From NCBI GenBank assembly GCA_045837725.1, contig JBEWZL010000205.1:51631-71630 (forward strand): DNA of 20,000 bases, read 5' to 3'. The translations under genes and the position numbers were made by a program. The notes under the pieces were generated by a model. It searched no databases and was not told the origin of the DNA. It saw only the letters and a program-made list of their open reading frames with translations. This DNA comes from Vermamoeba vermiformis (lineage: Eukaryota). Each line of letters opens with the position of its first letter. The stretch's first letter is position 1. Below, piece by piece: positions 2,936 through 20,000 of the stretch.

Positions 2936-2963
2936 TTGCGTATTCTATTTTCATTCACATCAG

Positions 2964-3179
2964 CATCAAACAGGATGCACGATTATCGTGCACGCATGCG
3001 CATCAGACAGAGCGTACGATTATCGTGCACACATGCGTGCCAGACAGGGCGTACGATTATCGTGCACGCATGCGCATCAGACAGAGCGTACGATTATCGT
3101 GCACGCATGCGTACCAGACAGGGCGTACGATTATCGTGCACACATGCACATCAGACAGGGCGTACGATTATCGTGCACA
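2964..3179. repeat. 37-bp tandem repeat (~6 copies) with a palindromic core
   Basis: Core ACGATTATCGT at 2979, 3016, 3053, 3090, 3127 and 3164 (exact 37-bp period). Unit GTACGATTATCGTGCACGCATGCGCATCAGACAGAGC. Confidence 0.97.
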
Positions 3180-3180
3180 G

Positions 3181-4135
3181 GAGTGGGCACCTAGAATTCC
3201 ATGAGTGGGCACCTGGGATTCCGGGCACCTAGAATTCCGGGCACTTAGAATTCTGGGCACCTGGGATTCCGGGCACCTAGGATTCTGTGACTGGGCACCT
3301 AGGATTCCGTGGGCACCTAGAATTCCGCGCACATGACTGGGCACCTAGGATTCCGTGGGCACCTAGGATTCCGGGCACCTAGAATTCTGTGAGTGGGCAC
3401 CTGGGATTCCAGGCACCTAGAATTCCGTGAGTGGGCACCTGGGATTCCGGGCACCTAGGATTCCACGCACATGAGTGGGCACCTAGGATTCCGTGGGCAC
3501 CTAAATTTCCGTGAGTGGGCACCTAGGATTCCGTGAGTGGGCACCTGGGATTCTGGGCACCTAGGATTCCGTGAGTGGGCACCTGGGATTCCGGGCACCT
3601 AGAATTCCGTGAGTGGGCACCTGGAATTCCATGAGTGGGCACCTGGGATTCCGGGCACCTAGAATTCCGTGAGTGGGCACCTAGGATTCCGTGAGTGGGC
3701 ACCTGGGATTCCGGGCACCTAGGATTCCGTGAGTGGGCACCTGGGATTCCGGGCACCTAGGATTCCGCGTACATGAGTGGGCACCTAGGATTCCGGGCAC
3801 CTAGAATTCCGTGACTGGGCACCTAGGATTCCGTGACTGGGCACCTAGGATTCCGTGAGTGGGCACCTGGGATTCTGGGCACCTAGAATTCCGTGAGTGG
3901 GCACCTGGGATTCTGGGCACCTAGAATTCCGTGAGTGGGCACCTGGGATTCCGGGCACCTAGAATTCCGTGAGTGGGCACCTGGGATTCCGGGCACCTAG
4001 AATTCCGCGCACCTAGAATTCCGGGCACCTAGAATTCCGTGACTGGGCACCTAGGATTCCGGGCACCTAGGATTCCGTGAGTGGGCACCTGGGATTCCGG
4101 GCACCTAGAATTCCAGGCACATGACTGCACACCTA
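3181..4135. repeat. GC-rich minisatellite of GGGCACCTRGRATTCC (16 bp) with or without GTGAGT (22 bp), roughly 50 units
   Basis: Read directly; 16- and 22-bp units often alternate into a 38-bp higher-order unit. Confidence 0.97.
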
Positions 4136-4226
4136 AATTCAAACAGCCCTGCTGACTAAACTTTATGTGCCCACTAAATTCCTACATTTGTGTCACTCCC
4201 TGAACTTGCTTTTAAAACTCCTTTGC

Positions 4227-4261
4227 AAAAAATGGCTACCAAACATTAGTATCTAATTTTT
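4227..4261. promoter_or_regulatory. 35-bp palindromic site, intergenic copy
   Basis: AAAAAATGGCTA-ccaaacattag-TATCTAATTTTT. Confidence 0.7.
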
Positions 4262-4413
4262 AACATGAAAAAGTAGTGTAACTGAAATACCACTTAGGAC
4301 ACTGCTTTCCCTACCATGCTATCCTTGGACAATGTATGAGTGTGTCTGATATGATCAGACACACTAAGAATTGAACTTGGATAGCTACAAAGTCATTACA
4401 TTGTCCTGAAACT

Positions 4414-5978
4414 TTATTTATTTTTAGAGCCTAAGCGTACAGATGGGAATGAATTGTTCTTCATTTGCTGAACAAAACCCATGTCCTTATTCATTACAGT
4501 TTGTCGTTTTGCGTGAATAGCTGCAGCTTGAGACATCACAAATAGATCTGTGAGGAAATATTCAGAGGACAATTGTAGAGCTTCAAGAGCAACTGCTTGC
4601 CAGCGAACACCTTCTAAGTCACTATCACGGGTTAGATCTTCAGTTACTTCACGGACAAGGCGCTGGAAACCTCGACGTGACATCAGAAGTGTGGTGCTGT
4701 TTTGATAAAATTTGATTTCAGCCATGCCTATTAAAAATTATTAATAATGAACTAGTATAAATTTACTGAACTTACGTCTACTTGCAAGGCTTTGATTCAC
4801 GTTCTTCTTAGCCTTGAACACCTTGGGCTGCAAATGTTTTAATTACACACGTGTTTATGAAATTAGTTTAAATGATGATATAACTTACTCTTTTCGTTGG
4901 ACGAGAGTTTGAATCTGCACCTGATGCCTTTCGTTTCTGTCCTCTCTGTAAGATAAGACTGTGAGATTACTTATCAATTTACTAACAATATTACCTTCGG
5001 TTCATTCTCATTCTTATCGTCAACTACTCGTTTTCTCTTCTTTGCCTTCTTGTTGGCGACGGTTTTGTTTGTTGCACCTCTCTGCAATAATGTTAGGTCA
5101 TACTATTAATTAAATTACTTACCTTTGTCATGTACTCCTCTTCATCGACCTTGCCGACACTCTTTCTTTTCTTGTTTGGCTGTTTGGCAGGGGCTTGTTG
5201 CTTGGCAGTGTCCGCTTGTTTGCCACTCTCCGATCCTGATTGTCGTAGTTTGGCATTGCCGTCTTTGTTGCCTTCATCAGCAGCAACATTGGTGTCTTCA
5301 GCCTCACTGTCGCGTTTCTCGCCACCCCCTTCTTCTTCTTCAGCCTCACCATCGTCATTGTTACCGCGTTCTTTTTCGTGCTCGCTGTGTTCGCCTTCTT
5401 CTGGCGCTGCACCTTCAACGTTTTGGTTGTTTTGGGCTAATTCCTAAATAAAAATTAGCTATTGTTTGCTCATAGCCAATAAAACTGTACTGCATTAGCG
5501 TCGGTGATCTCAACAACTTCCTCGATCTCACCAGCCAAACGTGCTGATCGTCTGGGTGAATTACCAACACCATCATCTTGGGTCGCACGAGCTTTGTGGC
5601 GAGCTTTAGCTCCAGGCCTATTTCGTCTTTTACCGGTCCTGATTGAAGTACATTATTAAACGTGTTTTAATTATTAATTTCATCGAAAAAAAGCATCTTG
5701 GAAATTTGCCCCGTAAATAAAGATTAATGATTAAAATTACTTACTTTTGGCCTGATTTATTTGAAGATTTTTTTTTCGATTTATTCTTATTAGTAGACTG
5801 GGAATTAGACCTAATTATGCCGTTAATAATATTTAATTTTGACGATAAATATTTTATTCATAATTGTACACTACGTACTTATTTCCAGAGGCCACCCGAC
5901 CAGATCTGTTAACTATTGTAAATATCTAATAAACAAACTTATTATATGAGCTTACATTTCGTGTGGGGAACGAGGCAT
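4414..5978 (-). CDS. Divergent histone H3 variant (CenH3-like) with a very long charged N-terminal tail, 364 aa, 9 exons
   Basis: Exons 5978-5956, 5905-5879, 5810-5745, 5638-5491, 5443-5123, 5081-4995, 4945-4889, 4827-4776 and 4727-4414, all GT-AG and frame-consistent (first two exons less certain). The C-terminus EIKFYQNSTTLLMSRRGFQRLVREV...VRWQAVALEALQLSSEYFLTDLF...AIHAKRQTVMNKDM aligns with the H3 histone fold. Confidence 0.9.
5450..5484. promoter_or_regulatory. 35-bp palindromic site in a histone-gene intron (5444-5490)
   Basis: AAAAATTAGCTA-ttgtttgctca-TAGCCAATAAAA. Confidence 0.75.
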
Positions 5979-6077
5979 GTGGTGTTTGATTTGGGTACGA
6001 TAGATTTTTGTTTCGATTTTAACGGTAACCAAAAAACCTTCGGCCACTAGCAAAAAGCAACAGATAGACCAACAGCA

Positions 6078-7042
6078 ATGTTAAATTTAAGGTACGTATT
6101 AAATCGCAAATAATTTTTTTTTGCCTCTTGGCGCAGATCAAATAATAATAATTCTTTATTTATTTTTAAAATAATTAAAATACTTCGTAGGCTAGTAGCA
6201 AAAGATTTCTTAGTTGCCGCTAGCAAGGAACAACTATTTGCATCGGTTCTTGGAGTGCACCAAGTAACCGGAATTGCTGTACCAACGATTAAAAAATATG
6301 CCTTGGAAAAAAATATTGGTAAGCCATTGAATATCAATTACTATTCCATTTCTGATATGACATTAGGACGAAAATTATTACCGGGAGAGATCCCGCCTGA
6401 AATTGCATCCAAGATGCATAAATTAAAGGTTGAAGGGTATTGGTTTGATGTCGCCGACATCAATTCCCTTCTACGGATAATCAGCACCAAGACCAGCAAC
6501 AAAGAACAACTCAAGACAATAAGGTAAGGATTAAAATTTTAACGACCAATTAAACTCACCAAAATTTTATAGGGAAGGACTCAAATCAACAACCTTGAAC
6601 AAAATTATAATGGTCGCTTGGGATGGCTCGAATTTTAAGGTACGTGATTTTTAAAATTAAAATAATTATTTAATTAACCAATTTTGAGTTGCTTTGGAGA
6701 GAATCAACTGACGAGGTTTCTGCCGATGAGAGTGATCCAACACTCTTATCGACTGCAGACGCTGAATTTTTAGCGAGTGAGGAACTGCTCGCCAAGGGTT
6801 GGAAAGCAATACCCAACCGAGCAGAACACATCGCAAAAATTTATAATATTGATATCTCACAAATTGAGACGCCAGTGAAAGAAGCGGAAACAATTCCTAT
6901 TTTGGACAACTTACACAATTTTTACACGAACGCTGCGGCAACAAGTGCATCGGACGAGGATCTATCTGGCGAGGAATTTGAAGACCTAGACTCATCAGAA
7001 GAGAGCCAATCAAAAGAAAGTAGCTCGGAGGATTTTGTTTAA
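6078..7042 (+). CDS. Hypothetical 255-aa protein, possible N-terminal helix-turn-helix, acidic C-terminal tail, 4 exons
   Basis: Exons 6078-6091, 6191-6523, 6573-6639 and 6689-7042 join in frame. The segment SVLGVHQVTGIAVPTIKKYA resembles a MerR/excisionase-type HTH (by eye only). Divergent from the histone gene across ~100 bp. Confidence 0.75.
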
Positions 7043-7055
7043 CGTTAATAAATAT

Positions 7056-8583
7056 TTATTTAAAAATATTATCAATTTTCTTTTCTAAAAAATACAACTT
7101 TCTTGCTCGGCCTCCAGCTCGACGTGCTCCTCTCTGTGCAGAAGAACGCCCCGATGTACCTTTGGGCTGGTGGTTTGACGGCTCGATCTCTGGCAATGGC
7201 AGGCTTAGGAGGCTGGCCTTCGTACGGTCTCGAAGTCTAATGCTCTGCGTTGTCATTAGACATTATTAGATATAATTATATTATTATTTATATCTCGATT
7301 AGACATTATTATTTTATTTTAAACTTACCTCTTTTTGCGGCGATCCTAGCGTGATCTTTTTATCCGCCTCACCCCACCACATGTACGGTCCAACACCAAG
7401 ACCATGAGCCCCAAAGCCTGTCGTCTGCGTTGATTCTTTGTGCCAACTTGCTGGCATCTCGGATAATTCCTCTTCTTTAAGATCGGGCACAAAAATCGTT
7501 GCCTGAGACTTCGTTATTTTCATTTCTCGTGCACCGGCCTTCGTCAGCCCTGCTGTCAATCGCGCTACCGGCACTCGATGCTCTGGGTCCAAATTAACAG
7601 AGCTCGCTCGGTAGACTTTGATGAAAATGGCCCTGAACGAGAGCCATTCCCGCTCATCAAACTCGGTTGGCGGCACGTATGGTCTATTGGCCATATAGCC
7701 AATCATGAAGTCGAAGTACGCTTGAACCAAGGCAACGAACTGCTGCAAGTAACCGCGCACTATCATTGCGTCATAGAAATTTGCCCAAGGCCGAATGCCT
7801 AATTATGTAGTTAATAAATTGGCTATTATCCGTTAGTAGCCAGTATTTACCTGTATATTTGTACCACCAAAAGCAAATTTCGTTTGAAGAATACGCACCG
7901 ACACCGTTGAACATCGATTGGTTCAATAAACAGTCGATGATCGTTGCCCTCTAGTAAAATATTAGTATTAGTCGTACTGATTTGTTATTGTACTAACCTT
8001 GAAATATTTTTGGTAGGCATCATCGTTTAACAGCGCCAGCAAGTGTTCGTGCAAGTCGCCGGCAAGTACATCCGGGCCCCTGGCTGGATCCATCGCTAAA
8101 CTTGCATCAGGATGCCATTTGAATGACACCTGATTTTGTTTGGTGTGGCAATCTAATATATAGATTGCCGCACCATTGTCGGCATTTAGCGCTATGTTTC
8201 GCCGATAGTCTAATGGGCTCGTGTCGCGATCTGATATCGCACCAACGTGAAATGCTGCGCCGGTGCCCATGCCAAAGGTCATCGCGTAATTATTAAAAAT
8301 TAACGCAATTTCCTTGCCTCGTGATACTACCTACGTAAATAATAATTAATTATAACCTAATTTTAAATCAAAACTTACATCCGTAACCGTCAGCGGTAGG
8401 CACGCGCGCATTGCCTCGATCTCCGCGCTGTACTTGTTGTGAGGCACGCGCTTCTCCACTTCTACAATCCTTAAGCCAATTGCTATAAATAAAGATTAAT
8501 ACAGATTAAATTTTATTTTATTTGGAATTACCTTTTTCTTTGAGGTGCCTTGCGAAGCCCTCGATCTCTGTTTTTTCGGGCAT
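7056..8583 (-). CDS. nei: Fpg/Nei-family DNA glycosylase/AP lyase (NEIL1-like, no zinc-finger cysteines), 415 aa, 6 coding exons
   Basis: Exons 8583-8532, 8482-8379, 8330-7998, 7950-7851, 7798-7329 and 7244-7056. N-terminus MPEKTE (catalytic Pro2/Glu3), SRGKE (conserved Lys), FGMGTG, RGPD, H2TH motif IIDCLLNQSMFNGVGAYSSNEICF, GIRPW, IKVYR, and a basic disordered tail. Probable 5'-UTR intron at 8585-8625. Confidence 0.9.
7814..7848. promoter_or_regulatory. 35-bp palindromic site in a nei intron (7799-7850)
   Basis: ATAAATTGGCTA-ttatccgttag-TAGCCAGTATTT. Confidence 0.75.
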
Positions 8584-8644
8584 ACTATTAAACGGTAATC
8601 GATTAATTAACAATTAATAAATTACTTATTCAATTCGTTTAACG

Positions 8645-9073
8645 AAGCCAATCCGGATCATTTTGGCGAGTGCAACAACAGCTGCTGCCAGACACCAGCT
8701 TGATTTACGTCATAACGCCGCGGTTCATCTGGAACCAGCCGCGCTTGATTTCATCAAGCTGTGTGCGGCATCAAGCTGCATTGAAGCCGGATTAACCGTT
8801 GCTTCGATTGAGTCAGATGCGGTTCAACGGGAACCAGCAAAACGACAAAACCATCGCCAAAGCTGAGGTCACTCTTAATAGATTTTTGGAATTGGCTTCG
8901 CAAATAACAAAGCCAATCCGGATCATTTTGGCGAGTGCAACAACAGCTGCTGCCAGACACCAGCTTGATTTACGTCATAACGCCGCGGTTCATCTGGAAC
9001 CAGCCGCGCTTGATTTCATCATGCTGTGTGCGGCATCAAGCTGCATCGAAGCCAGATTAACCGTTGCTTCGAT
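8645..9073. repeat. 164-bp direct repeat (8645-8808 and 8910-9073)
   Basis: Two copies 265 bp apart with about 3 substitutions, upstream of the nei gene. Confidence 0.95.
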
Positions 9074-9470
9074 CGGATCAAGTGTGCGGTTTAACGTAAA
9101 CCAGCGCCACAGTAATCCATGCATGCCCTTGATGACCTCGCAGCGTAGTGTCGTATTTGATTACGAGTAAATTCCTAGTCAAGCCAGCACATCTCGAAAG
9201 TAATTTAAAAATTATACTAAAAAAATTTAAAATATTATTAAACGATAATATTTGTTTTTGTTGCTTACGTTTTATTTTTCTTGATGCCAAGCTCAGACAA
9301 ACTTCATTGGACTGAGATCGGGGTCCCGAAACCTTATGACAGGGCCGATCGACTATTTAAAAAACAGAAGTAGTAGTTAGAGGCTTTATTCTCGATATTG
9401 TTAGTACTTACCTGCGCGTGGTGTGTTGATATTGCGGTTTAAACAGTTAAATGACGTGTTTCGAAATTTA

Positions 9471-9545
9471 CCAAAAAAAGTTAGCCAAAAAAATTTGGGC
9501 CAAAAAAAGTTAGCCAAAAAATTCGTCCCAAAAAAAATTGCGGAA
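9471..9545 (+). repeat. Five CCAAAAAA(A) A-tract units at ~14-15 bp period
   Basis: ccaaaaaaagttagccaaaaaaatttgggccaaaaaaagttagccaaaaaattcgtcccaaaaaaaattg. Confidence 0.8.
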
Positions 9546-9589
9546 ACCAATTTTGCGCGTTTGTCTTCTATCCGCACAGATGCGCAGCA

Positions 9590-11820
9590 ACACAACTCAG
9601 CTAAAGGTCGTAATAGGTAAGTGTTCTTTATTGTTTTATTATTTATATTGTATTAATTTCTTTAGCTATCTTTACTAATTAATTTTCGTAGATTTTAATG
9701 CGCGCATCGGCTTAACCACGAGCAAAACCGCGTCAAGCCCCCACGCGCTTGGATGACCGCAGTGATGGTAAGTGTTATTTAATTCTCGCGTGAGAATACT
9801 AATTAATTTTATTTGTATTAGATTTTACAACGCATTGAAATTACCTGTGAGCGAGTCCGTGAAAAGCCCTCCGCGCTTTAATGATGAACAGTAACGCAGT
9901 ATTGATGGTAAGTTAATTATTTAATCTAGCGCGAGAATACTAATTAATTTTGTTTGTATTAGATTTTACAACGCGCATTGAAATTACCTGTGAGCGATTC
10001 GTGAAGAGCCCTTCGTGCTTTGATGAATGAACAGTAACGCAGTATTGATGGTAAGTATAATTATTTAATTCTCGCGTGAGAATACTAATTAATTTTGTTT
10101 GTATTAGATTTTACAACGCGCATTGAAATTACCTGTGAGCGAGTCCGTGAAAAGCCCTCCCGCGCTTTAATGAATAAACAGTAACGCAGTATTGATGGTA
10201 AGTTAATTATTTAGTTAATTAGTTAAGCTCGCGCTAGAATACTAATTAATTTTTACAGATTTTAGTACTAAAATGCGCATCGGGTTAGACTTGGCACAAG
10301 CAAGCCCGCACCGAGCTCTCTTTTGGCTCATCCTCTGCACTTCTTGTGCAGCATATGTGAACTATTCATGATGGCTACTCGCGTCTTGTTTCGCTAGAAC
10401 TGCGATTTCCGTGCTCTAGATTTGGTCACTGGCGCATCCGTACCGAGCCTTCCCTGCCTTGGCTCACCCTCTGCGCTTCTTCACAAGGGTCTGCGGTGTA
10501 TCGACGAACTATTCACGGTGACTACACGCGACCTGGGTCGTTGGAGACAGTGCAACACGATCTCCCGCGCATCGGATTTCTCGCTAGCGAATCCGCACCG
10601 AGCCCTCCCTGCCTTGGCTCACCCTCTGTGCTTCATCATAAGGGTGTGCGGTGTGTCGACGAACTATTCATGGTGACTACACGCGTCCTGAGTTGTTGGA
10701 GACAGCGCAACACGATCTCCCGCGCAGCAGATTTGGCAGTAGCGAATCCGTACCGAGCCTTCCCTTGCCTTGGCTCACCTCTGCGCTTCTTCACAAGGGT
10801 CTGCAGTGTGTCGACGAACTATTCATGGTGACTACACGCGTCCTGAGTTGTTGGAGACTGTGCAACACGATCTCCCGCACAGCAGATTTGGCAGTAGCGA
10901 ATCCGTACCGAACCTTCCCTTGCCTTGGCTCACCCTCTGTGCTTCATCACATGGGTGTGCAGTGTGTCGACGAACTATTCATGGTGACCACACGTGTCCT
11001 GAGTTGTTGGAGACTGTGCAACACGATCTCCCACGCATCGGATTTGGCAGTGGCGAATCCGTACCGAGCCTTCCCTTGCCTTGGCTCACCCTCTGTGCTT
11101 CATCACAAGGGTGTGCGGTGTGTCGACGAACTATTCATGGTGACTACACGCGTCCTGAGTTGTTGGAGACAGCGCAACACGATCTCCCGCGCAGCAGATT
11201 TGGCAGTAGCGAATCCGTACCGAACCTTCCCTGCCTTGGCTCACCCCCTGCTCTTCTTCGCAGGGTCTGCAGCGTGTTTACGAACTATTCGCGAAGGCTG
11301 TATGCGTTTTGGGGTCGCCGAAGTTCGAAGTAATGCGATCTCCTGTGGTTGGATTTAATCTCGAGCTAATCTGCACTGCGCTCTCTTCTGTCTTGGCTCA
11401 CCCTCTGCTTTAATGCCCGGCATCTGTACGTTCGTGGTGGTTAGGTGCGCGTTGCATCGCTGGGGACGAAGCAACACGATCTCCCACGCAGCAGATTTGT
11501 CACGAGCGAATCTGCACCGAGCCCTCCTTTGTCTTTGGCTTACCCTCCGCACTTCGTCGCAGGGTCTGCAGCGCCTTTACGAATTATTCATGGTAGACAC
11601 ACTGGATACTCGCAACACAATCGAGCACATCTCGGATGTAATGCGCAACGAGGCTCGCACTGAGTTCCAGATGCGTTACACGATTGCCGCAGGTCACTTC
11701 AAAGCCTGCAGCATCTTCATGAGCTATTCGTGATAGTTACAACATGGATGTTGAGACAAATGCAACGTGTGTAGTTCAGGATCTTGTTAATGTTGTTAAT
11801 AAAATGTAAAATAAATGTAT
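9590..11820 (+). ncRNA. Putative spliced long non-coding RNA built from tandem repeat units
   Basis: Five consensus introns (GTAAGT...CTAAT...YAG) at 9617-9691, 9768-9821, 9908-9962, 10051-10107 and 10198-10258. The internal exons checked (9692-9767, 9822-9907) have stops in all three frames. AATAAA motifs near 11798-11815. Transcript ends are approximate. Confidence 0.55.
10270..11770. repeat. ~155-bp tandem satellite (~10 units, central 5-6 nearly identical)
   Basis: Marker GAACTATTC at 10359, 10506, 10661, 10816, 10972, 11128 and 11282 (periods 147, 155, 155, 156, 156, 154), with degenerate copies near 11430, 11581 and 11721. Confidence 0.95.
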
Positions 11821-11892
11821 TAGTTTATTTGTTAGCTACTGGCTAGTAAGAGCTAGCAATTTAATAAAAGTCCGTTAGGATTTAGATTTTCA

Positions 11893-11938
11893 GGCCACAT
11901 TTTTTGGGTCACATTTTTTGGGTCACATTTTCCTGGCA
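11893..11938 (-). repeat. Three (CC)AAAAAATGTG-type A-tract units at ~15 bp period, upstream of the 800-aa gene
   Basis: Plus strand gccacatttttttgggtcacattttttgggtcacattttcctgg. Confidence 0.75.
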
Positions 11939-12005
11939 ATTTTTATTGTTTGCCTTGAACCTTATCCAATTTTGATTTCTAGTCGTTACAGAACTCTTCA
12001 AAGGT

Positions 12006-14813
12006 ATGTCTTTATTACAAAAATTAGAGGCAAATCTAGACAAAATTCTAAAAGAAAATGTCTCGTCGGGAGACTTCAAATTGCCCAATTTTAAGCAAAA
12101 TTTGAATTTCTTTTTAGATTACATTACCAAAAAATTTCCCTGTTTTGCCGATCAACCCCAGAAAGAAATATCTGGGTTGATTAAGGGCAAAATTGCTGCT
12201 ATTAACCCAACAGGATTTGTATCTGATGGTCAATTGCCAACTCCAAATGCAAAGCGTATCTGGGTAACGGCCTTTTATTCTCATCTCTTGCTTGGTAAAT
12301 CTTTTTCTTCACAGGAAAGTGTCCAAGATTGGGTAGCAGAAACATGGCCGGATCTCCAAGTACCTGTCCAGGCTTTCCAAGCAGCTTATATTTTGTTGAG
12401 CGAGTACTCTGATTCTCCACCAAGAGGTGCCAGAACCTCCAAGAGGAATGCTAGTTCTGGTGTGCAATTAGAAGTAAGACCTTGCAAATTCCAGCTATCA
12501 GCGATTAATAGCTTTGTTTTGTTGCTTAGGCGGGAGCTGCTGAAATTTCTGCTTCAATGGACTCAACCTCAAGAGATTCTGACGAGGAAGAGGAATCAGA
12601 CATAAGTCCTGGGCCTATCAAGGGTGCTCTCAGGCAAAATCCAAAGAGAGTGCAAAAGCTCAACCTGGATGAAAAGTTAGCGGATGATTCCAGTGTAGAT
12701 GAAGCTGAAATTGGGACTGGCAGTGATGTTGTTGTGAGTGATGACAGTAGGTCCCAGGGGCATGATAGCGACTCTCAACATGATGCCGAGCTAGAATCCG
12801 AGTTTAGCAATGATGATGTGATAAGTACTGAAACTGTCCAGCCCCCAGTACTGGATGAACATGAAGGAAATGCTCTAGAGCTGCTTGCCTGTTCAGCTTT
12901 GGATTTTCCCTCTGAAAGTAAGCAAAAACTAGCTACCATTGATTGATAGCTGATTTACTTTTGCAGATGACCCCGATGTCAGCAATAGTGTTACTTTTGC
13001 AACAAAAGCTTCAAGCCAACTTTCCAAAGCCAGTGTGAGGCAGGCTAGTGTTAAGCCAAAGGAAAATATTGGGTCACACGTCAACACAACAGAAAATGAG
13101 ACCGTGGCTACTGTCACAGCAGACTTGCCAAAACAACAGTCTTGTACACCTCAAAGTAAGCAAAAATGAGCTACCACAAGCCAATAGCTAATTATTTTAC
13201 AGGTTTGAGTCCTACTGTTGCAAATATTGTTAGTATGCTGATGGCTAAGGCATCAACAGGTTAGCTTACCATTACAATGTCTAATTAACGCCATTAACAA
13301 TATTGAAAACAGATCCTGAAAAACTTGGTGTACTGTGTGTGGCATACTTATCTGCAGTTCACTCATCTATGGTTGTCGAAGATAACAAATTGATTGCAGT
13401 GCGAGTGAATAATGAAACATGTAAGTGCCTCTATCTTTCCTATATTTTACAAACATTTTCTTACATTTAAAGCATAGTCAAATTCAAAAAGGGCATCCAT
13501 ATTGATGTGGAAGTAAGATGGTCTGACGAGTCTTCAAGCTCTTCGGAAGAAAGTTCCAAAAGTTCTAGAGAAATGAGATCTTCCAAAAGTTCTAAAGAAA
13601 AGAGGTCCAAACACAAGATACAAGAAGAAAGATCACAAAGTTCTACAGAAATGAAGTCTAGATCTAAGACACAGCATGGTGTTAAGGACAAAAAGAATGA
13701 TTCAATGGAGGTTTCTGAAGGCTCAAGTTTGCAATCAACTAATGCCATCGAGCCACAAAAAGAGTCAATCACATCTCAAGCCTCTGGTGCAGTAACCTGT
13801 GATAGTGCCCAAAAAAGTGGTTTGCAATCGAAGAAAAGAAAATCTGGAAGCATTGCTGAAGATGAATTGCCTAGCCCTTTAGACAATTCAAGACCTCAAG
13901 GATTTGCTGCATTAATCAGAGAGCTTGGCCTTGAAGGTAAGTTGCAGCCAACCAATTGACATTTTCTTACAATTTTTGTAGAAAAAACAATGGCGTTCTT
14001 GGAAAGACTCATCAAAAAGAATTACATCAATGAGGGCCTTTTCCAAACTTTTTCGACAGCAGCCCAAAGTGTAGTGCACAAGCCAGTAGAAATATTGTGT
14101 CCTACAGTGGACTACATGCCTAAACAGTTTTTGCAAACCTGGTTTGATCCTTCTTTGGGAAGTGTGAACAAAGATGAACTATTGGTTTGGATGGCCTCGA
14201 GCATGGAGACAATCTGTCCAACATACCTGAGCATCACGGTATGCAAAAACAAGCTATAAACTCATGATAGCTGATAATTTTGAATAGGTTTATGTAAAGC
14301 TAATGGTTTTTGTGCTGGCAACTGTTCTTCGGGCATGGTCAATGACTATTCAGACTGAGCTCCAAAATTCCTCAGAGTATGCTTCAACTCCAAATGCTGC
14401 ATCCATTGCATCCAAGACAAACGAGCAGTTACTGCAAAGGCTCGCAAAACATCCTCAGTTTGAGAAGCTGTGCAATATGGATTTGTTTCCTAGGAACTTT
14501 TACAAAACAACAACGCCAAAACAAACTTTTAGAACGTAAGTGCACATCAAAATGGCATTATTTCTAAGATGTTTTCATTTTTAGGTGTAAAAGTGAAATG
14601 CTCAAATTCTTGGAGCTTTGTCGCTTAGTACCTGCTTTATTGTTTTGTGAGTTGCCATATTCTTCAATCATCAGGCACTCTCCCACATTCACAGAGTTTG
14701 AAAAGGGTTGGACCATCTTAAAGAAGGATGTCCGTGCAAAGGACTTTTTACACCTGGCATATTTCACTGAAATTCCTATGCCAGTAGCCATTCCAAGCTA
14801 TTTACTTCAATAG
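12006..14813 (+). CDS. Hypothetical ~800-aa protein with long acidic and Ser/Lys-rich disordered regions, 9 exons
   Basis: Exons 12006-12473, 12530-12917, 12967-13155, 13203-13259, 13313-13420, 13478-13936, 13982-14238, 14288-14535 and 14585-14813 splice in frame with GT-AG introns. No family recognised; KKRK is a possible nuclear localisation signal. Confidence 0.85.
12486..12520. promoter_or_regulatory. 35-bp palindromic site in intron 12474-12529
   Basis: AAATTCCAGCTA-tcagcgattaa-TAGCTTTGTTTT. Confidence 0.7.
12924..12958. promoter_or_regulatory. 35-bp palindromic site in intron 12918-12966
   Basis: AAAAACTAGCTA-ccattgattga-TAGCTGATTTAC. Confidence 0.75.
13162..13196. promoter_or_regulatory. 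35-bp palindromic site in intron 13156-13202
   Basis: AAAAATGAGCTA-ccacaagccaa-TAGCTAATTATT. Confidence 0.75.
14245..14279. promoter_or_regulatory. 35-bp palindromic site in intron 14239-14287
   Basis: AAAAACAAGCTA-taaactcatga-TAGCTGATAATT. Confidence 0.75.
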
Positions 14814-14897
14814 ATTTTTTTCTCCCGACGAGTTTTTTTTCGATCTGTTGAGTAATTTCAAGTAGTTTATTCTACTAAATAAATTGTATTTGTAGTC

Positions 14898-17800
14898 ATG
14901 GACTCGGCTGGTTATCTCAACCATATATCTTCAGATCTTTATGCTGATCCTTATGCGGACTCCTTCAATGATTTTTCCTCAGACTTGGCTCCACACTATA
15001 TGGATGAACTTGAAAGTCTTGATTTGGAAGACCGAATGGATGTTGGGTCAGTTTTAACCCCAGTGCATGAAACAGCCCCAGTAAGTTATTGACATTCATT
15101 GTACAGTAAAAAATGTTTAATTTTGTTGAAAGGAGTTGTGGAGTTTGGAACAATACAAGTCTGCACACCCACAAACTGTGTTGTTTGTTCAAGACTTTTG
15201 TAAGCTGTCGGCAGAAGACCAAAGGAAAGTTATTTACAAACTTGAAAAGTATGTAATCATTACACTACATGTTTATTTACTGAGTTTTGTCTTTAGTTTC
15301 GATGAAAACGCTTCAAAGTGTGCTGAGCTGCCAAGACATCTGGCATCTGCTTTGAAAAAGAGCATAGATAGATTACAACCTGCTTCTGTATACACTAGTC
15401 AGTTAATGGAAGCAGTTAGAGTTGTGTCGACAAAGTCTCTTCCTGTCATTGGGGACCAGTCACCGCTAAAGCACTCAATTCTTCAAAAACACAAACAAAT
15501 TCCATGGCACGAGTGGATAAACAGTCCAGTCATGTACTCTCTAGACAATGTTGAGCCAAATCTTGGAGAAAACAACTTTAACACAACTATTGACATTGAT
15601 GCAACCATCGTCCACTCGAATACCTTGCATGTCATGAAACAAGGGTTCAGATTGTTTAGCAACCCAAGGTATCACCACCAAGCTGCAAAGATTAAGCATG
15701 CATACAAGGGAAAGTCTTTACATCGAGTAGTGCATGTTGAGATTGGGTAAGAAAACAATACTAAATCTATACATTAATAATCAATTTTCAGTGAGTTGGC
15801 TGGCAAATACAAAGTATATGCATGCTTTACCAACTTTCCTTCTTGGTACAACAAACAGGCAGATCTTGTACGAAAGTTTTATGAGTGCGTATTGAAAGGT
15901 ATGCAAAAATTAGCTATAGCTCATTCGTATCCAGTTTTTAACAATGAAATCTTTAGGAATCAAGCATGGTCCTCAATCAGGACAGGTTGGAATTTTCAAA
16001 GATATAGATCAGTACCTGAGCGCTACATCCTTTGCAGACCGTCAGCATATTGATATCCAACCAGATTCTTTCAAGTTCATTGAGAATTCTATATCACAGT
16101 TCAAATATGACGAGAAAAAGTAGGGTATTAATTCAATTTACTATGCTAACAAGATTTTAGAGTGGATGTATGTTACTCTTTCCAATACTTTGGAGCAAAA
16201 GAGGTTGTTACTCCAACTGGTTTTAAAGCTCACATGGATTTAATTGGGTCAATATTTGACATTGCAGGCATTGTTGATCCTTCAAACAAAATGCTTGATG
16301 ATACAGTTTATATTCAAGATCTAGCTCTTACAATCAGGTATCTTGCTCTCAACAATTGGAATTCTTATACTGATTTCATGTATTAGTCCTGTTAAAGAAC
16401 AACGCCATAAAATTGCGTTGCTATGGAACCCAGAATTCCTAGGGTCATTAGGCAAGCAGGATTCATCCCCTTTAAAAAGATTACTGAAGGCAAATGAACG
16501 AAGTGAACAGCCTACAAAAGAAGTTTACCCAAAGGGCTCTACAATTCTTTATCCAAATTTGGGAATGGGTCAAATTACCAGTTGTATGGTCGATTGGTCT
16601 TCAACAAAGGGTGCTATTAGAGAAATCAAAGGATACTGCTCAGTGAGCAAAATTTGGCGCTTAAATGCTCCGTATGAAGATACTTGCTACTCTGTAGCCG
16701 CTCTACCTCTGGCTCCAATGTTGAGCAATTCTGATATAGATGACCATGTGTGGAAAGCTCTTGATGACCGGTGCGTTGTCATTAACTTGTTTATTGTTTC
16801 CATTGCTAATTAGATTTAGTGTTCACAAAATAATTGCTTCATTTGAAAAGCACTTGGAAAATGAAAAGATCTACAACATCTGCCAGGCTCTTCAAGAAAC
16901 AACAGCTGGCGTCAGACTAGAAATAAGTTTCCAAAATCTTGGGTCTGAGCGACTACAGCAAGCTTATAAAGAGCTGGAAGAGTTATCACAGTCCATTCTC
17001 AAAACTCACTTGGGATTGCAAACTCTGTACCAACAAGAGTACATTCCATTGGAGAGCATGCGATTTAGTCCTTTGCAAATAGTTACTACTTGCTCTGTAA
17101 CAGCTCTAACTGAATTCCAAGCAAAGTCGATGAACTGCATGTTTGAAAAAATTCTCGAGCAGGTTATCAAAGGTAAAAACAAGCTACCGAGTGATCATAG
17201 CTAATTTTTGTATAGAAGGAACAAACAACACTAGCATAGATACGGTAAATGCCCTTGCTGTTCTGGAGGATGTATGTACATGACACGAATTCAAAATCTG
17301 TGTTATTAATTTGAATGGTCTGCTCTACAGCTACAGAAATTGTTGTGGTCTGGTAGTATTCCTACTCTTCATAATCCTTCGCTATTCAAAGCATATAATG
17401 TAATTGGTTGGATCAACAAGTACAATAGAGTGTATCTACCGCCATCAGTGTTCCGTTACAACCATCAGTCTCCTGCTAAGAGCTCCTGCATTTTGAAGTC
17501 TTTGGTTAATACTGTTGATGATACAGAAGGGGCGGACCCAGAAGTGTTTCGTACAGGATTAATGGCTCCTAATTTAGCAATCACAAATAGATTCTTATAC
17601 CAAGCATTTGGGGAGAACAGCAAAAAAGTAGCAGAAGTGTGCAAGACAATCAACGACATGGTGATTGTGAAGTTGAATGGCCAATCAAAATTGCTACAGC
17701 CAACTTATCTTTCGCAAACAATGATCATTGCCACAAATTTGCTGAACAAGCTGTTTGAATGCTTGTTGTCTGAAATGGCCATTCCAAGCACTCAACATCA

Positions 17801-18721
17801 CAAAGTCTTTCAGCTGCTTCGAAATGAGCTACCTTATGAAATTGCAAACGCTAGATCCAATGCCAAAATTACAACAATCAAGGGCTTTGTACGCAACTGC
17901 TTTCCTTTAGACAATCCTGCTGCATCCATTGAAAAGCAACCGTTCTTTGCACTTTGGGTGGAAACTGTTGCATCGTTGAACCATGTCAATAAGTATGTAA
18001 AAACAAGCTATCAAGTAGCGGTAGCTAATTTTTGCACAGGAGCATGCATTTTGCAGCATATTGCGATGTAAAAGAAAAGAATGGAGTGGGCTATCCAGTA
18101 AACAAGACGATATATGCAGAGGATATCCAAAAACAAATGATTATTGTGTTGTTCAACAGTGAAATACGATGGCTACCATCTCTTGGGTCCAATTCATTGG
18201 TGCTCAAGGATAAGGCTGGCAAGTTTGTTTTGGACAAGGTGGCTCTGCAATTCAAGTCAAGCATATTTCCTGATTGCAAAATGACTGCAAAAGATGGAGA
18301 ATTGCTTCCTCATCCAGTTGATGGATCCTTCATCCACATGCTTGCTGTGCAGGTTGGAACTCTCGCTGCAAAAAAGAGAGAAGCTGAGGTTGCTGCTTAC
18401 AAACAGGCAAATCCAGATTATAACAAGCCCAGAGTTATTCGAACAGGTGCGATTAGCAAAGTGTCCACTTACAATGCACAAACAGTGAAGTATAGCGCTG
18501 CTGAGATTATTGGACAGTTGTTATTTCAGTACTTCCACATGCCAGTGCATGAACAGATGCCCGCATCCGAAGCTGAAAAGTACAAAACATCTGTTAATAC
18601 ACACAACTCCTCAAAAAAGGCCATTGTTGCTACCAAGATGCTTCGAGAAGCTACACATGGACGTGGATACCAGCGACTTTCTCTTGATGATTTGTGGAGA
18701 TTGCACATAAGTTTGAAGTAG
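14898..18721 (+). CDS. Large hypothetical protein, ~1112 aa, 11 exons
   Basis: Exons 14898-15080, 15133-15248, 15297-15746, 15792-15898, 15957-16119, 16161-16337, 16387-16770, 16814-17172, 17216-17271, 17331-17992 and 18040-18721 join in frame. Globular-looking core with motifs IDID, LHRVVHVEIG, YFGAKE, QDLALTI, KGYCSVSK and GVRLEISF. Confidence 0.85.
15905..15939. promoter_or_regulatory. 35-bp palindromic site in intron 15899-15956
   Basis: AAAAATTAGCTA-tagctcattcg-TATCCAGTTTTT. Confidence 0.7.
17175..17209. promoter_or_regulatory. 35-bp palindromic site in intron 17173-17215
   Basis: AAAAACAAGCTA-ccgagtgatca-TAGCTAATTTTT. Confidence 0.8.
17999..18033. promoter_or_regulatory. 35-bp palindromic site in intron 17993-18039
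   Basis: AAAAACAAGCTA-tcaagtagcgg-TAGCTAATTTTT; arms identical to the 17175 copy, spacer different. Confidence 0.8.
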
Positions 18722-19399
18722 GAGGATGGTTTTTAGCTGCCATGGGAATCTATAACTGAATGCATATCTTTTTCTTATTAATTAATAAACAATTACATCT
18801 ACTACACTTTGGTATCTCTTCCTTTGAGTGTACGCAGAGACTACAATAGTGACCTCCTAATCAGTGCCTAATCACAATAACAATTAATATGTGTAGGACA
18901 ATAGATGCGTGTTGGAGTTGCTTAACGGTATCCTCGATCTAAGTCAGCACCAAGGTCTGCTCCTTTTTGGAATTTGTCCAAGCTAGATCTAGAGCAGGAT
19001 CTCAACTTCTCCAAATTAGAATCAACTCATATATTATCCATAGCATATTTATATCAATTTGTATTGATTCATGCCATGTCCACAAAGATTAGATGTTTTC
19101 CAACTTTGACACATCCGGCTAGCAACCAGATCTTGTAGCCATGATCTCATATTGATGAATCTCTTTCATATTCTTGTGTTACTCTATTTATACGTATTTA
19201 GTGTAATAGTGGCATCTTGTTCTGACAGTTGGTGCATGGTTGTAAGATTTGTATCCCTTATCAAGTACGTGATAACTTCAAGTGTGGACTGAAAACCAAG
19301 CCAAATTAATCAGAAACATATCAGAACATTATCTAAACGGTGGATCTGATAGTTTTAAGTTGGAATGTCAATTCAAGCATGGGTAAAAGTAGGCACCCT

Positions 19400-19870
19400 G
19401 AATGAAGGACTAAGTTAAAGCCCCAAAGTTGGGATTTGACATCAGACTCACTGTTAAATCCATGATTTCATAGTGAATATGAAGACTATTAACAGATCCG
19501 AGTAGAACTCAGCTTGATCCAGTGCCTGGAGGTGAGTCAGCACCAAGAGCAAAGACTCAAAGTTGGGAAACACTTTGGAATAGGTGTTCCATTGATGGAT
19601 CATAGCTAATAACAGTAAAGTAGCAGATCTATTTTGAAGTCAGTTCAACGTGATCCCTTGATTTGATTCAGCTCCAAGAATCAAATAAAGGTTGGGATTT
19701 AACTTGGGAATCAGTGTTTAATCAATGAATCATAGCAAATCTAAGTAAAATAATAGATCTGTGGTGAAGTTAACTCAATTTGATCCCTGGATCTTAGTTA
19801 ACAACCAAGGTCTGTGGCTTGGTAAAATCCAAGTAAAGTTTTTATCTGCAATCCCAAAGTTTGATGCATG
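19400..19870. repeat. Degenerate ~130-bp tandem repeat (3-4 copies), subtelomere-like
   Basis: Recurring landmarks at ~130-bp spacing: AARGTTGGGA (19425, 19559, 19688), CATAG (19469, 19601, 19731), AGATC (~19494, 19625, 19755) and CCAAG (~19543, 19675, 19806). Confidence 0.7.
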
Positions 19871-19949
19871 TGTGGGTAGGGCTTGAAAAGGCCTTCAAAG
19901 TGGTACCAGTCTTGCCTCTGTAGCTGTCCTAGTAAGGGAGAAAATCGAG

Positions 19950-20000
19950 TTAGGGTTAAGAGGTAAGTTAGGGCTAGTCGAACAATAGGGTTAGGGTTAG
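19950..20000 (+). repeat. Degenerate then perfect TTAGGG telomere-type repeats at the window edge
   Basis: TTAGGG at 19950 and 19968, then TAGGGTTAGGGTTAG at 19986-20000, with the G-rich strand running toward the end. Confidence 0.65.

Follow-up and report, generated by a model that had tools for sequence, protein, structure and literature searches.

A family of short predicted introns built around a 35-bp inverted-repeat dyad in Vermamoeba vermiformis

The core sites loxP, FRT and dif, at which tyrosine recombinases act, have inverted arms of 11–14 bp around a 6–8-bp spacer and a total length of about 34 bp. Introners are spliceosomal introns that arise from non-autonomous transposons and form families of near-identical members; in the parts of the survey drawn on here, the published families have median lengths of 30–654 nt, lie in both orientations, and have terminal inverted repeats in 72 of 177 cases (PMC9860276). 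The introners of Amoebophrya, as described in the sections cited, carry inverted repeats of 8–20 nt at the intron ends, which can form a hairpin that joins those ends (PMC7789003). In the proliferated (stw)introns of the Hypoxylaceae, as far as the cited part of that report goes, symmetry is suspected to aid propagation (PMC8469720). Here we analyse a stretch of 20,000 nucleotides from Vermamoeba vermiformis (assembly GCA_045837725.1, contig JBEWZL010000205.1, positions 51,631 to 71,630; "the window" below), in which a palindromic dyad of 35 bp recurs inside very short introns. The locus lies at a chromosome end. These dyad mini-introns are a real and unusual intron family. Our preferred reading, which we hold tentatively and with less than even confidence, is that minimal spliceosomal introns, each self-contained and palindromic, form an introner-like family here with the dyad as their core.

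The dyad and its fixed spacing

Both strands of the window were scanned with the IUPAC pattern A5-NN-RGCTA-N11-TAGCY-NN-T5, allowing up to three mismatches, and the resulting 17 matches merge into ten distinct sites, which start at positions 4227, 5450, 7814, 12486, 12924, 13162, 14245, 15905, 17175 and 17999. All ten copies of the original prediction are thereby recovered; shuffled versions of the window hold a mean of 0.02 matches and at most 1, and 17 matches were reached in none of 200 shuffles. A "weak copy" that had been listed at 11827 is rejected as a member, as it has GAGC where TAGC is needed, lacks the N11 core and is missed at up to three mismatches. A bare GCTA-N11-TAGC core without arms (one of the nine strict-core matches) is present at 12790, within an exon of gene g1. 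An unguided repeat search also retrieves the dyad family, listed there as D10 (6 copies, 46 nt).

The claim of a fixed 11-bp spacing is borne out. When the spacing was varied from N3 to N21, GCTA-N11-TAGC was found nine times and any other spacing zero to two times, and a relaxed core pattern gave 12 matches at N11 (here including copies 4227 and 15905, whose right arms read TATC) versus 0–4 at other spacings. Across the ten copies there are no indels within the dyad, the arms hold 1.48 bits of information per column and the spacer 0.59, and pairwise identity is 75% in the arms and 36% in the spacer, against a random expectation of 27%. The centres of all ten copies are unrelated, and this excludes a single master from which the copies were simply and recently made. 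Copies 17175 and 17999, whose arms had already been noted as identical, agree at 24 of 24 arm positions and at 4 of 11 spacer positions, so that selection on the arms or a diverse source pool is needed. Faint symmetry reaches into the spacer and leaves about 5 central bases free; the semi-conserved symmetric columns 13/23 and 15/21 leave 5–9, and if such weak positions are counted the layout is about 15-5-15 or 14-7-14. No half-site of at least 10 bits occurs in the window outside the ten dyads, where shuffles expect about two.

Placement in short predicted introns

As originally proposed, nine of the ten dyads are intronic, spread over four genes and both strands, and under our gene models none of the ten full dyads is exonic; the introns in question are predicted GT-AG introns of 43–58 nt (Table 1), so that some indeed barely exceed the palindrome. 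These locations rest on predicted gene models with hand correction of three introns. One of these, 5444..5490, was set by hand where the flanking frames fit phase 0 (the automatic model took a neighbouring GT/AG). Of the non-coding DNA in the window, 18% is intronic, and the binomial probability of at least nine of ten copies falling in them is about 2e-6.

Table 1. Coordinates of the genes, dyads and dyad-bearing introns of the window
Feature	Coordinates	Strand	Description
Putative "recombinase" gene	1–2095	-	Cut by the window edge
Dyad copy 1	4227..4261	-	150 nt downstream of the CenH3-like stop
CenH3-like histone gene	4414..5652	-	3' part modelled; 5' exons further upstream
CenH3-like gene intron	5444..5490	-	47 nt: GTACAG + dyad 5450–5484 + ATTTAG; dyad from base 7
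415-aa gene	7056–8583	-	No assigned family; carries dyad 7814
415-aa gene intron	7799..7850	-	52 nt; dyad 7814–7848 from base 3; GGCTA...TAGCC variant
Proposed weak copy	11827..11861		More than 3 mismatches, no N11 core
Gene g1	12006..14813	+	Predicted 800-aa protein; 8 introns, 4 with dyad; no Pfam family
g1 intron 1	12474..12529	+	56 nt; dyad 12486–12520 from base 13, inverted
g1 intron 2	12918..12966	+	49 nt: GTAAGC + dyad 12924–12958 + 8 nt; 3' arm TAGCTGAT
g1 intron 3	13156..13202	+	47 nt: GTAAGC + dyad 13162–13196 + 6 nt; 3' arm TAGCTAAT
g1 intron 7	14239..14287	+	49 nt: GTATGC + dyad 14245–14279 + 8 nt; 3' arm TAGCTGAT
Gene g2	14898..18721	+	Predicted 1112-aa protein; 10 introns, 3 with dyad; no Pfam family
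g2 intron 4	15899..15956	+	58 nt: GTATGC + dyad 15905–15939 + 17 nt; frame change across intron
g2 intron 8	17173..17215	+	43 nt: GT + dyad 17175–17209 + GTATAG; dyad from base 3
g2 intron 10	17993..18039	+	47 nt: GTATGT + dyad 17999–18033 + GCACAG

Within the intron, the dyad starts at base 7 in six of the nine introns and at base 3 in two (hence from base 3–7 in eight), with base 13 in the remaining one, and it ends 6–9 nt before the intron 3' end in six and 13–17 nt before it in three. As to the original observation that the downstream arm often doubles as a branch point, the 3' arm contains a branch-site-like CTRAT in six of the nine predicted introns. In the CenH3-like gene intron this arm is TAGCTAATTTTT; the right arm of g2 intron 4, TATCCAGT, has no CTRAT, and TTAAC occurs further downstream. 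Orientation relative to transcription is biased 8 to 1, the exception being 12486, which is inverted with respect to the other copies (the usual 5'-type arm sits on the 3' side, and the pattern matches the minus strand only). The 7.6 kb of intergenic DNA contains a single dyad, 4227, whose right arm reads TATC, not TAGC, on the plus strand; reading the minus strand, this copy is framed by GTT...GCAAAG from 4264 down to 4221 (44 nt), and it may be a 3'-UTR mini-intron of the CenH3-like gene. The suggestion that these are sites parked in introns so as to leave coding sequence undisturbed does not explain this placement, neither the fixed donor offset and the CTRAT in the 3' arm nor the GT...AG frame of the lone copy in so much intergenic DNA. 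The dyad unit looks like a whole mini-intron rather than a site parked in one.

No paralogy links the four host genes: among five modelled gene products, the lowest E value of any BLASTP pair is 0.12. The CenH3-like gene matches PF00125 with E 2.5e-19, and its best PDB matches, Cse4 and Cnp1, rank slightly ahead of canonical H3; it may well be an ordinary cellular gene and not the cargo of an element. The spliced reading frame of g2 is stop-free, and its 15 relatives (E up to 1.4e-08, 20–57% identity) are known solely as exon-sized ORFs from metagenome-type assemblies.

It might be argued that the dyad is an ordinary habit of the species, many short introns genome-wide carrying an extended branch-site/U-tract motif together with its complement, and that the cluster reflects the intron density of the window alone. 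The presence of the dyad in genes of two styles, including the probably cellular CenH3-like gene, is consistent with this, as is a read-through tail, RYCKKPATTL, in the homologue P0006 (34% identity), which could encode the left arm at the corresponding intron. However, the dyad occurs in just 9 of the 32 modelled introns, and the remaining 23 have no half-site of at least 10 bits, hence the right arm is more than just the branch-site signal of the species. In addition, the exact pattern is very rare in collections that may not include this organism: it was found at 55 isolated places in a metagenome contig collection, at 62 places in 596 Gb of prokaryote genomes and nowhere in viral contigs, and it was never clustered. 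No related loci were found in the metagenome or viral collections. We consider a species-wide habit highly improbable.

Pairing and protein binding as possible constraints on the arms

A second possibility is that the arms form an RNA hairpin that regulates splicing. The donor-side 5' arm would pair with the branch-site/U-tract arm and either mask the branch point or draw it near the donor, so that splicing would be slowed or made conditional, with, for example, some transcripts left unspliced. The spliceosome would then fix the 3' arm and thereby the 5' arm as its complement, and covariation would not be expected. The confinement of the dyads to introns, their fixed distance from the donor, the CTRAT within the 3' arm and the 8 to 1 orientation bias all argue for such a hairpin. 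So does the minimum-energy fold, in which the GCUA core is paired with UAGC in six of the seven dyad introns of g1 and g2 (the exception is 15899), and so does column pair 8/28, the sole informative pair, where 9 of 10 cells pair, including two GU and one GC.

The pairing itself, however, does not appear to be what is conserved. Over 15 column pairs, 72.7% of cells are complementary, and column composition alone gives 74.2% in shuffles, 449 of 500 of which equal or exceed the observed value; the covariation score is 0.093 versus 0.127 in shuffles (461 of 500), in a test whose power is low because 3 of the 15 column pairs never vary. Thus no excess complementarity or covariation between the arms was found with these ten copies in this low-power test, and no compensatory changes above column composition are seen. 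Mismatches that recur at arm positions 6–7, and C:T at 10/26 in two copies, are uncompensated, and GU wobbles within the 12-nt arms are fewer in the sense strand (4) than in the antisense strand (8). The folds are weak, with energies of -3.3 to -9.9 kcal/mol in six of the seven g1 and g2 dyad introns (the lowest is -14.1) and z values of -0.1 to -1.6 in five, +1.0 in one and -3.9 in one. A simple stem also needs no loop held constant at 11 while the donor offset varies (3, 7, 13), and in copy 12486 the branch-type arm is on the 5' side. The lack of excess complementarity and the weak folding indicate a constraint on sequence rather than on pairing: the behaviour of the arms is that of a pair of inverted half-sites and not of an RNA stem under selection. 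We regard a splicing hairpin as rather unlikely. The introns were also rejected as mirtrons. A mirtron folds along its whole length into a hairpin resembling a pre-miRNA, whose stem reaches at least about 20 bp; these introns of 43–58 nt have stems of at most 12–14 interrupted pairs and fold energies of -3.3 to -14.1 kcal/mol.

Half-sites of this kind could instead be read as DNA. A dimeric DNA-binding protein (a recombinase, a partition or tethering factor, or a repressor) would recognise two inverted half-sites of 13–15 bp at fixed spacing, and the sites would be dispersed over a telomere-adjacent element, persisting only in places that leave coding undisturbed. The parts of the original prediction that stood, namely the dyad, its strictly fixed spacing in all ten copies and the conservation of the half-sites, here without covariation, point in this direction, as does the absence of solo half-sites from the window. 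At columns 13/23 and 15/21 the purine/pyrimidine preferences vary independently (C is opposite A in 4 of 10), which resembles degenerate half-site readout, and TTAGGG-type repeats bracket the block at 2535–2552 and 19950–20000. Like tyrosine-recombinase core sites, the dyad has two inverted arms and a short free centre in a similar total (35 bp as against about 34 bp), and with the weakly symmetric positions included its layout is closer to loxP and dif than originally thought; the strict spacer is nonetheless 11 bp and not 6–8 (5–9 when the weak columns are counted). No two centres are the same within the window, and ten different centres would restrict exchange by a tyrosine recombinase to allelic sites.

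Neither of the two candidate binders put forward has domain support: the "HTH-like" protein encoded at 6078–7042 has no HTH match in Pfam or NCBIfam, and the "recombinase" gene at 1–2095 has no Pfam, NCBIfam or PDB sequence match. For the latter a language model suggests ResT-TelK_cat (0.93) and Phage_integrase (0.92), the Phage_integrase annotation being borne by 13% of the members of that cluster. None of the genes in the window showed a DNA-binding or recombinase domain in searches of Pfam, NCBIfam and PDB sequences, and two AlphaFold models, with pLDDT 58 and 36 (the second that of gene 1–2095), are too poor to use. Unlike recombinase core sites, the dyads are tied to splice signals; the donor offset, the branch-site content and the orientation bias are unneeded for a DNA site, the one copy in 7.6 kb of intergenic DNA is itself GT...AG-framed, and one host gene, the CenH3-like one, is perhaps a normal cellular gene. 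We think a protein-bound DNA dyad unlikely. Very unlikely is its specific form, in which a dimeric protein belonging to a telomere-adjacent element would use the dyads for docking or crossover, as sites of lox/FRT size (about 14-7-14) with common arms and centres that all differ. If that form were true, each site would pair only with its own allele on another copy of the element, which would serve copy correction, resolution or tethering. The only tolerant intragenic sequence would harbour the sites, one half-site would double as the branch site, and a splicing signal and a DNA recognition site would occupy the same bases as a dual-use code.

Intron age and relation to described intron families

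In the introner-like family that we favour, a member would consist of a donor of 2–6 nt (GT or GTAWGY), the dyad (two inverted half-sites of about 15 bp, with the consensus TGATAGCTAATTTTT, around about 5 free bases) and a further 6–17 nt with YAG at the end. The 3' half-site would provide the branch-site-like CTRAT and the U-tract, the 5' half-site would be its inverted copy directly after the 5' splice site, and the unit would be transcribed and then excised by the ordinary spliceosome. Being a DNA-level module, it could lie in either orientation and in unrelated genes, and its half-sites and spacing would be preserved by the copying machinery or by a role of the module after insertion. The inverted copy 12486 is allowed by such a module but not by a branch-site complement that arose in situ. 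We infer that splicing follows the gene models, that the family is propagated or kept as a unit, and that other parts of the genome carry it too. No transposase or other copying enzyme was identified in the window.

Homologous genes were compared, as had been proposed. Intron 17993–18039 is absent from the homologue P0011, a single ORF of which aligns to both flanking exons, and this alignment with an intron-less homologue confirms the predicted intron. The 17993 boundary is the alignment end for most of the 15 aligned g2 homologues (20–57% identity), so that this intron position appears common to most of them and missing only in P0011, and the position of the 17173 intron is shared by an intron of the homologue P0003. 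Both testable dyad introns thus occupy old positions and were not created by recent insertion. Back-translation indicates that the P0003 intron at the 17173 position cannot contain the motif; for P0015 at the 17993 position neither the strict core nor either of the arms is possible, though the relaxed core fits once. If selection keeps the dyad in such old introns, then minimal introns here contain a sequence of strong conservation and constrained geometry, which is rarely seen. The ten-copy set is a ready position matrix for a genome-wide census.

Introner families are defined by at least four similar introns in non-paralogous genes, and here there are nine in four such genes. The likeness to the introners of PMC9860276, as described in the parts cited, extends to inverted repeats, occurrence in both orientations, and length. 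Introner similarity is also expected to begin within about 10 intronic bases of both splice boundaries; the dyad does so on the 5' side in eight of the nine introns and on the 3' side in six. In contrast to those families, similarity is limited to the arms and the centres are unrelated: introner families show BLAST similarity at E 1e-5 over roughly the whole intron, whereas only arms of 12–15 nt are common to the copies here, and with 24–30 shared bases that threshold is out of reach. Nor is there a target-site duplication, as inspection by eye found no direct repeat in the flanks of the ten copies (only 17173–17215 has AAGG on both sides), and both testable introns (17993 and 17173) are at positions common to distant homologues and not specific to one lineage. 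With Amoebophrya introners the dyad introns share short inverted repeats at the ends and the fact that most introns of their genes belong to another class. Those introners have direct repeats of 3–5 nt at their boundaries, mostly non-canonical splice sites and, in the sections of PMC7789003 cited, no family-specific motif; the dyad introns are GT-AG, have no direct repeats and use one arm sequence throughout. The Hypoxylaceae (stw)introns, according to the cited part of PMC8469720, are likewise proliferated, highly symmetrical inverted-repeat spliceosomal introns with no flanking duplications, but their inverted repeats are 45–55 nt long, they are highly similar from end to end and many are nested twins, whereas the dyad introns are single introns with arms of 12–15 nt and a variable centre. 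In SOS splicing, in the portion of PMC12779559 used here, paired inverted terminal repeats in a transcript also mark a segment for removal from the mRNA; that process is independent of the spliceosome and removes whole transposons, while the dyad units are 43–58 nt long and framed by canonical GT...AG. If the family is mobile, it would be among the smallest intron-generating or intron-colonising modules known, about 45 nt with little beyond two inverted arms; only the arms and their spacing would need keeping, which bears on the origin of introns and on bursts of intron gain in particular lineages.

Copies, spacing and conservation of the dyad

The dyad is a 35-bp palindrome, A5-NN-RGCTA-N11-TAGCY-NN-T5, in which two inverted arms (half-sites) surround an 11-bp spacer; its copies are named here by their start coordinates in the window. 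All ten copies described as clear in the original prediction (4227, 5450, 7814, 12486, 12924, 13162, 14245, 15905, 17175 and 17999) are recovered as distinct sites by its pattern at three or fewer mismatches, against a mean of 0.02 in dinucleotide shuffles, and a pattern-free repeat search recovers the same family (as D10, 6 copies, 46 nt). A further weak copy proposed at 11827 is absent from these matches and has no correctly spaced core. There are no indels among the ten copies, and copy 12486 is the same dyad in reversed orientation. The predicted fixed spacing is borne out, as GCTA-N11-TAGC occurs nine times in the window and each other spacing from N3 to N21 zero to two times.

When the copies are turned to a common orientation, information per column is 1.48 bits in the arms and 0.59 in the spacer, and pairwise identity is 75% and 36%, respectively (27% is the random expectation for the spacer). 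Copies 17175 and 17999 do have identical arms as claimed (24/24 bases), and their spacers match at 4 of 11 positions. The idea that the spacer sequence differs each time holds for the mutually unrelated centres, but not entirely for columns 13/23 (Y/R) and 15/21 (mostly A/T), which show weak symmetric conservation and thereby leave a centre of about 5 truly free bases. Scanned with a half-site matrix, the window yields 19 of the 20 half-sites and no additional site (about 2 are expected in shuffles); solo half-sites are thus absent there, and none of the other 23 introns has a half-site as its branch region. That the dyad is a plain species-wide intron habit seems to us quite improbable.

Genes of the locus and placement of the dyads

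The window is eukaryotic DNA whose introns measure about 40–60 nt, and the six gene models were made in this analysis, those of the 5' part of the CenH3-like gene and of the 1-2095 gene being rough. The g1 and g2 translations are stop-free once the curated introns are removed. No Pfam or NCBIfam family was found for any modelled gene, the histone fold excepted. The best PDB matches of the CenH3-like protein are Cse4 and Cnp1, narrowly above canonical H3, and its gene could be either the host's own CenH3 or an element-borne copy. Among longer proteins, a word search with the CenH3-like exon found no match. For a different exon, 7317–7802, the best score in the Atlas protein-language-model neighbour search was 0.88, under the lead threshold.

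Modelled genes of the window and their dyad introns
Gene	Coordinates	Strand	Dyad introns/introns	Basis and remarks
Gene cut by window edge	1-2095	minus	0/2	gene model
CenH3-like histone gene	4414-5652	minus	1	PF00125; long charged N-terminal region, several introns
273-aa protein gene	6078-7042	plus	0/3	gene model
415-aa protein gene	7056-8583	minus	1/5	gene model
g1, 800 aa	12006-14813	plus	4/8	gene model
g2, 1112 aa	14898-18721	plus	3/10	gene model

Nine of the ten dyads lie within predicted introns (P ~2e-6, introns being 18% of the window's non-coding DNA), in agreement with the earlier assignment of nine copies to introns of four genes; none of these host genes is a paralogue of another. 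In six of the nine the dyad begins at intron base 7, directly behind GTAAGC, GTATGC, GTATGT or GTACAG; in two it begins at base 3 and in one at base 13. Dyad introns are only 43–58 nt long, so the dyad fills most of the intron, much as expected from the description of some introns as little more than donor, palindrome and acceptor. The downstream arm had also been thought to double as the branch point; six of the nine dyad introns have CTRAT in the 3' arm, where it may do so. Copy 4227 lies 150 nt past the CenH3-like stop, and the GTT...GCAAAG that encloses it on the strand of that gene makes it a possible UTR intron. A search of sequencing runs found no RNA run that contains the stretch, and three RNA runs labelled as the same species have 0 reads on 11940–18800 (g1 and g2), which has no bearing either way on splicing.

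Masking of the branch site by an RNA stem could account for the restriction to introns and for the orientation bias of the dyads. Within-copy complementarity is 72.7%, compared with 74.2% from column composition (449 of 500 shuffles are at least as high), arm covariation is lower than the shuffled mean in a test of low power (few paired columns vary), and recurrent mismatches at arm positions 6–7 are uncompensated. Such a stem could also account for the absent covariation, because the branch arm would be fixed by the spliceosome. It leaves unexplained, however, the invariant 11-nt loop, the inverted copy (12486) and the weak stability: predicted folds are weak in six of seven dyad introns (-3.3 to -9.9 kcal/mol, z +1.0 to -1.6), the seventh having -14.1 kcal/mol (z = -3.9). 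We consider this explanation rather unlikely.

A candidate protein-bound DNA site would explain the half-site pattern and the fixed spacing, but neither the tie to splice signals nor the near absence of dyads from 7.6 kb of intergenic DNA, and no binder is supported. The binders originally put forward, an HTH-like protein (6078-7042) and a recombinase, are not backed by domain searches: no HTH or recombinase domain was detected, and the one lead is an Atlas result for the 1-2095 gene. The language-model neighbours of its last 239 residues are unnamed eukaryotic and Preplasmiviricota clusters (scores 0.95–0.96), with ResT-TelK_cat and Phage_integrase as weaker neighbours that no profile or PDB sequence match backs. 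Two structure models are unusable, that of the recombinase-like piece predicted alone (pLDDT 36) and that of the g2 exon with 16 sequences (pLDDT 58), both too poor for a fold search. We regard protein binding as the reason for the dyad with considerable doubt.

Runs of TTAGGG-type short repeats occur at 2535–2552 (interstitial) and at 19950–20000 (running off the window end), with the plus strand G-rich, and suggest a subtelomeric block or stacked telomere-healing events. Long tandem arrays occupy about 2960–4130 and 9760–11590, and with these repeats the locus therefore looks subtelomeric. At 2958–4136 there are two adjoining satellites, one with a 37-bp unit (~6 copies) and then one with a GC-rich 22/38-bp unit (GGGCACCTAGRATTCCG-like, ~40 copies). 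Three to four tandem 145-bp units lie at 9600–10260 (9763–10213, 3.1 copies), each with an intron-like GTAAGT...TATTAG stretch flanked by short exon-like pieces, followed by a 155-bp array (5.6 copies at 10418–11290, diverged copies to ~11590); the reading frames of the 145/155-bp array look non-coding. A direct duplication of 176 bp (8640–8815 and 8905–9080, 96% identity) is found just upstream of the minus-strand 415-aa gene. In the DNA sequencing run X1, from which the window probably comes, window positions 11203–19930 form a single 8.7-kb contig that ends at the tandem array on one side and at the telomere-type repeat on the other; its mean word depth of 278 has no baseline and so is uninformative on copy number. 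Three metagenome runs (X3–X5) contain 21–29% of the sequence words.

Relatives of g2 and the pattern outside the window

The g2 family is rare: among 1.8 billion representative proteins, exon 17331–17990 has 17 matches. Exon-sized ORFs (P0001–P0015) account for fifteen, aligned over the whole exon with 20–57% identity and E up to 1.4e-08, all unnamed and from Logan or NCBI assemblies; the other two matches are weak and partial and fall in proteins of >1,300 aa, of which one is a named protein from a bacterium. Protein word searches matched this exon to P0002 alone among near-length proteins, and gave no match of the last g2 exon to longer proteins. Most of the relatives stop at the residue where the window exon stops. 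P0011, which is without the 17993 intron, continues as a single ORF in which residues 8–234 correspond to exon 17331–17990 and residues 239–344 to the next exon, so 17993–18039 is an intron at an old position. Comparative support of this kind was obtained for this one dyad intron. In P0003 the 17173 position likewise carries an intron, which on back-translation cannot contain the motif. At the 17993 position, back-translated P0015 excludes the strict core and either arm, with one fit to a relaxed core pattern, and the P0003 tail, by hand, allows the core at N11 with one mismatch, which is compatibility only. For P0006 (34% identity), the left arm would fit the back-translated read-through tail at the homologous site.

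The exact pattern AAAAAYNAGCTA-N11-TAGCTRAT, which fits five of the ten window copies, has 55 loci across the entire collection of metagenome contigs, 62 loci in prokaryote genomes totalling 596 Gb (one place listed per locus) and 0 matches in viral contigs. When the 55 metagenome loci were rescanned with a relaxed pattern, 52 had one site, one (L009) had two and two had none; no cluster of exact-pattern sites was found at any metagenome or prokaryote-genome locus (only the metagenome loci were rescanned). The surroundings of these matches resemble bacterial terminators or unrelated repeats. Loci L027 and L048, with GTAAGT upstream of the match, were dismissed as chance since they lie in stop-rich, repeat-like DNA. 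Six very AT-rich contigs of one metagenome (L005, L006, L009, L017, L020 and L051; GC 13–33%) each carry a near-identical copy of a different palindromic repeat that matches the pattern by coincidence; it is a separate family in a context unrelated to the window. Protein-profile scans for DNA relatives confirmed none of 275 pattern matches in metagenome contigs and none of 92 in viral contigs. Full-text literature searches turned up no account of an intron family with an A5-NN-AGCTA-N11 dyad, which is weak evidence of absence; supplementary tables of the introner surveys could list this family.

Comparison with introners

We tentatively favour the reading that the dyad introns are an introner-like family of mini-introns, in which the unit would be an entire mini-intron built on the dyad core. 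Like introners, they lie in unrelated genes, have inverted terminal repeats and occur in both orientations. Their mutual similarity approaches the boundaries to differing degrees, with the dyad starting at intron base 3–7 in eight of nine and at base 13 in one, and ending 6–9 nt from the 3' boundary in six of nine and 13–17 nt from it in three. Mirtrons, Helitron-end hairpins, excision footprints and IESs were dropped on account of the stems, which are too short, the GT-AG ends, the constant spacing of 11 and the reading frames, which need exact removal.

Dyad-intron length falls inside the published introner range (PMC9860276), and the dyad introns resemble both the Amoebophrya introners with hairpin ends (PMC7789003) and the symmetrical introns of Hypoxylaceae, which have no duplications (PMC8469720). 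Set against these systems as a group, the dyad introns differ in that the centres of their copies are mutually unrelated, in that they are without target-site duplications (none was seen by eye at the flanks of the ten copies), and in that both testable copies are at old intron positions. These differences imply that something keeps the arms and their spacing, which could be the machinery that copies them or else a function exerted after insertion.
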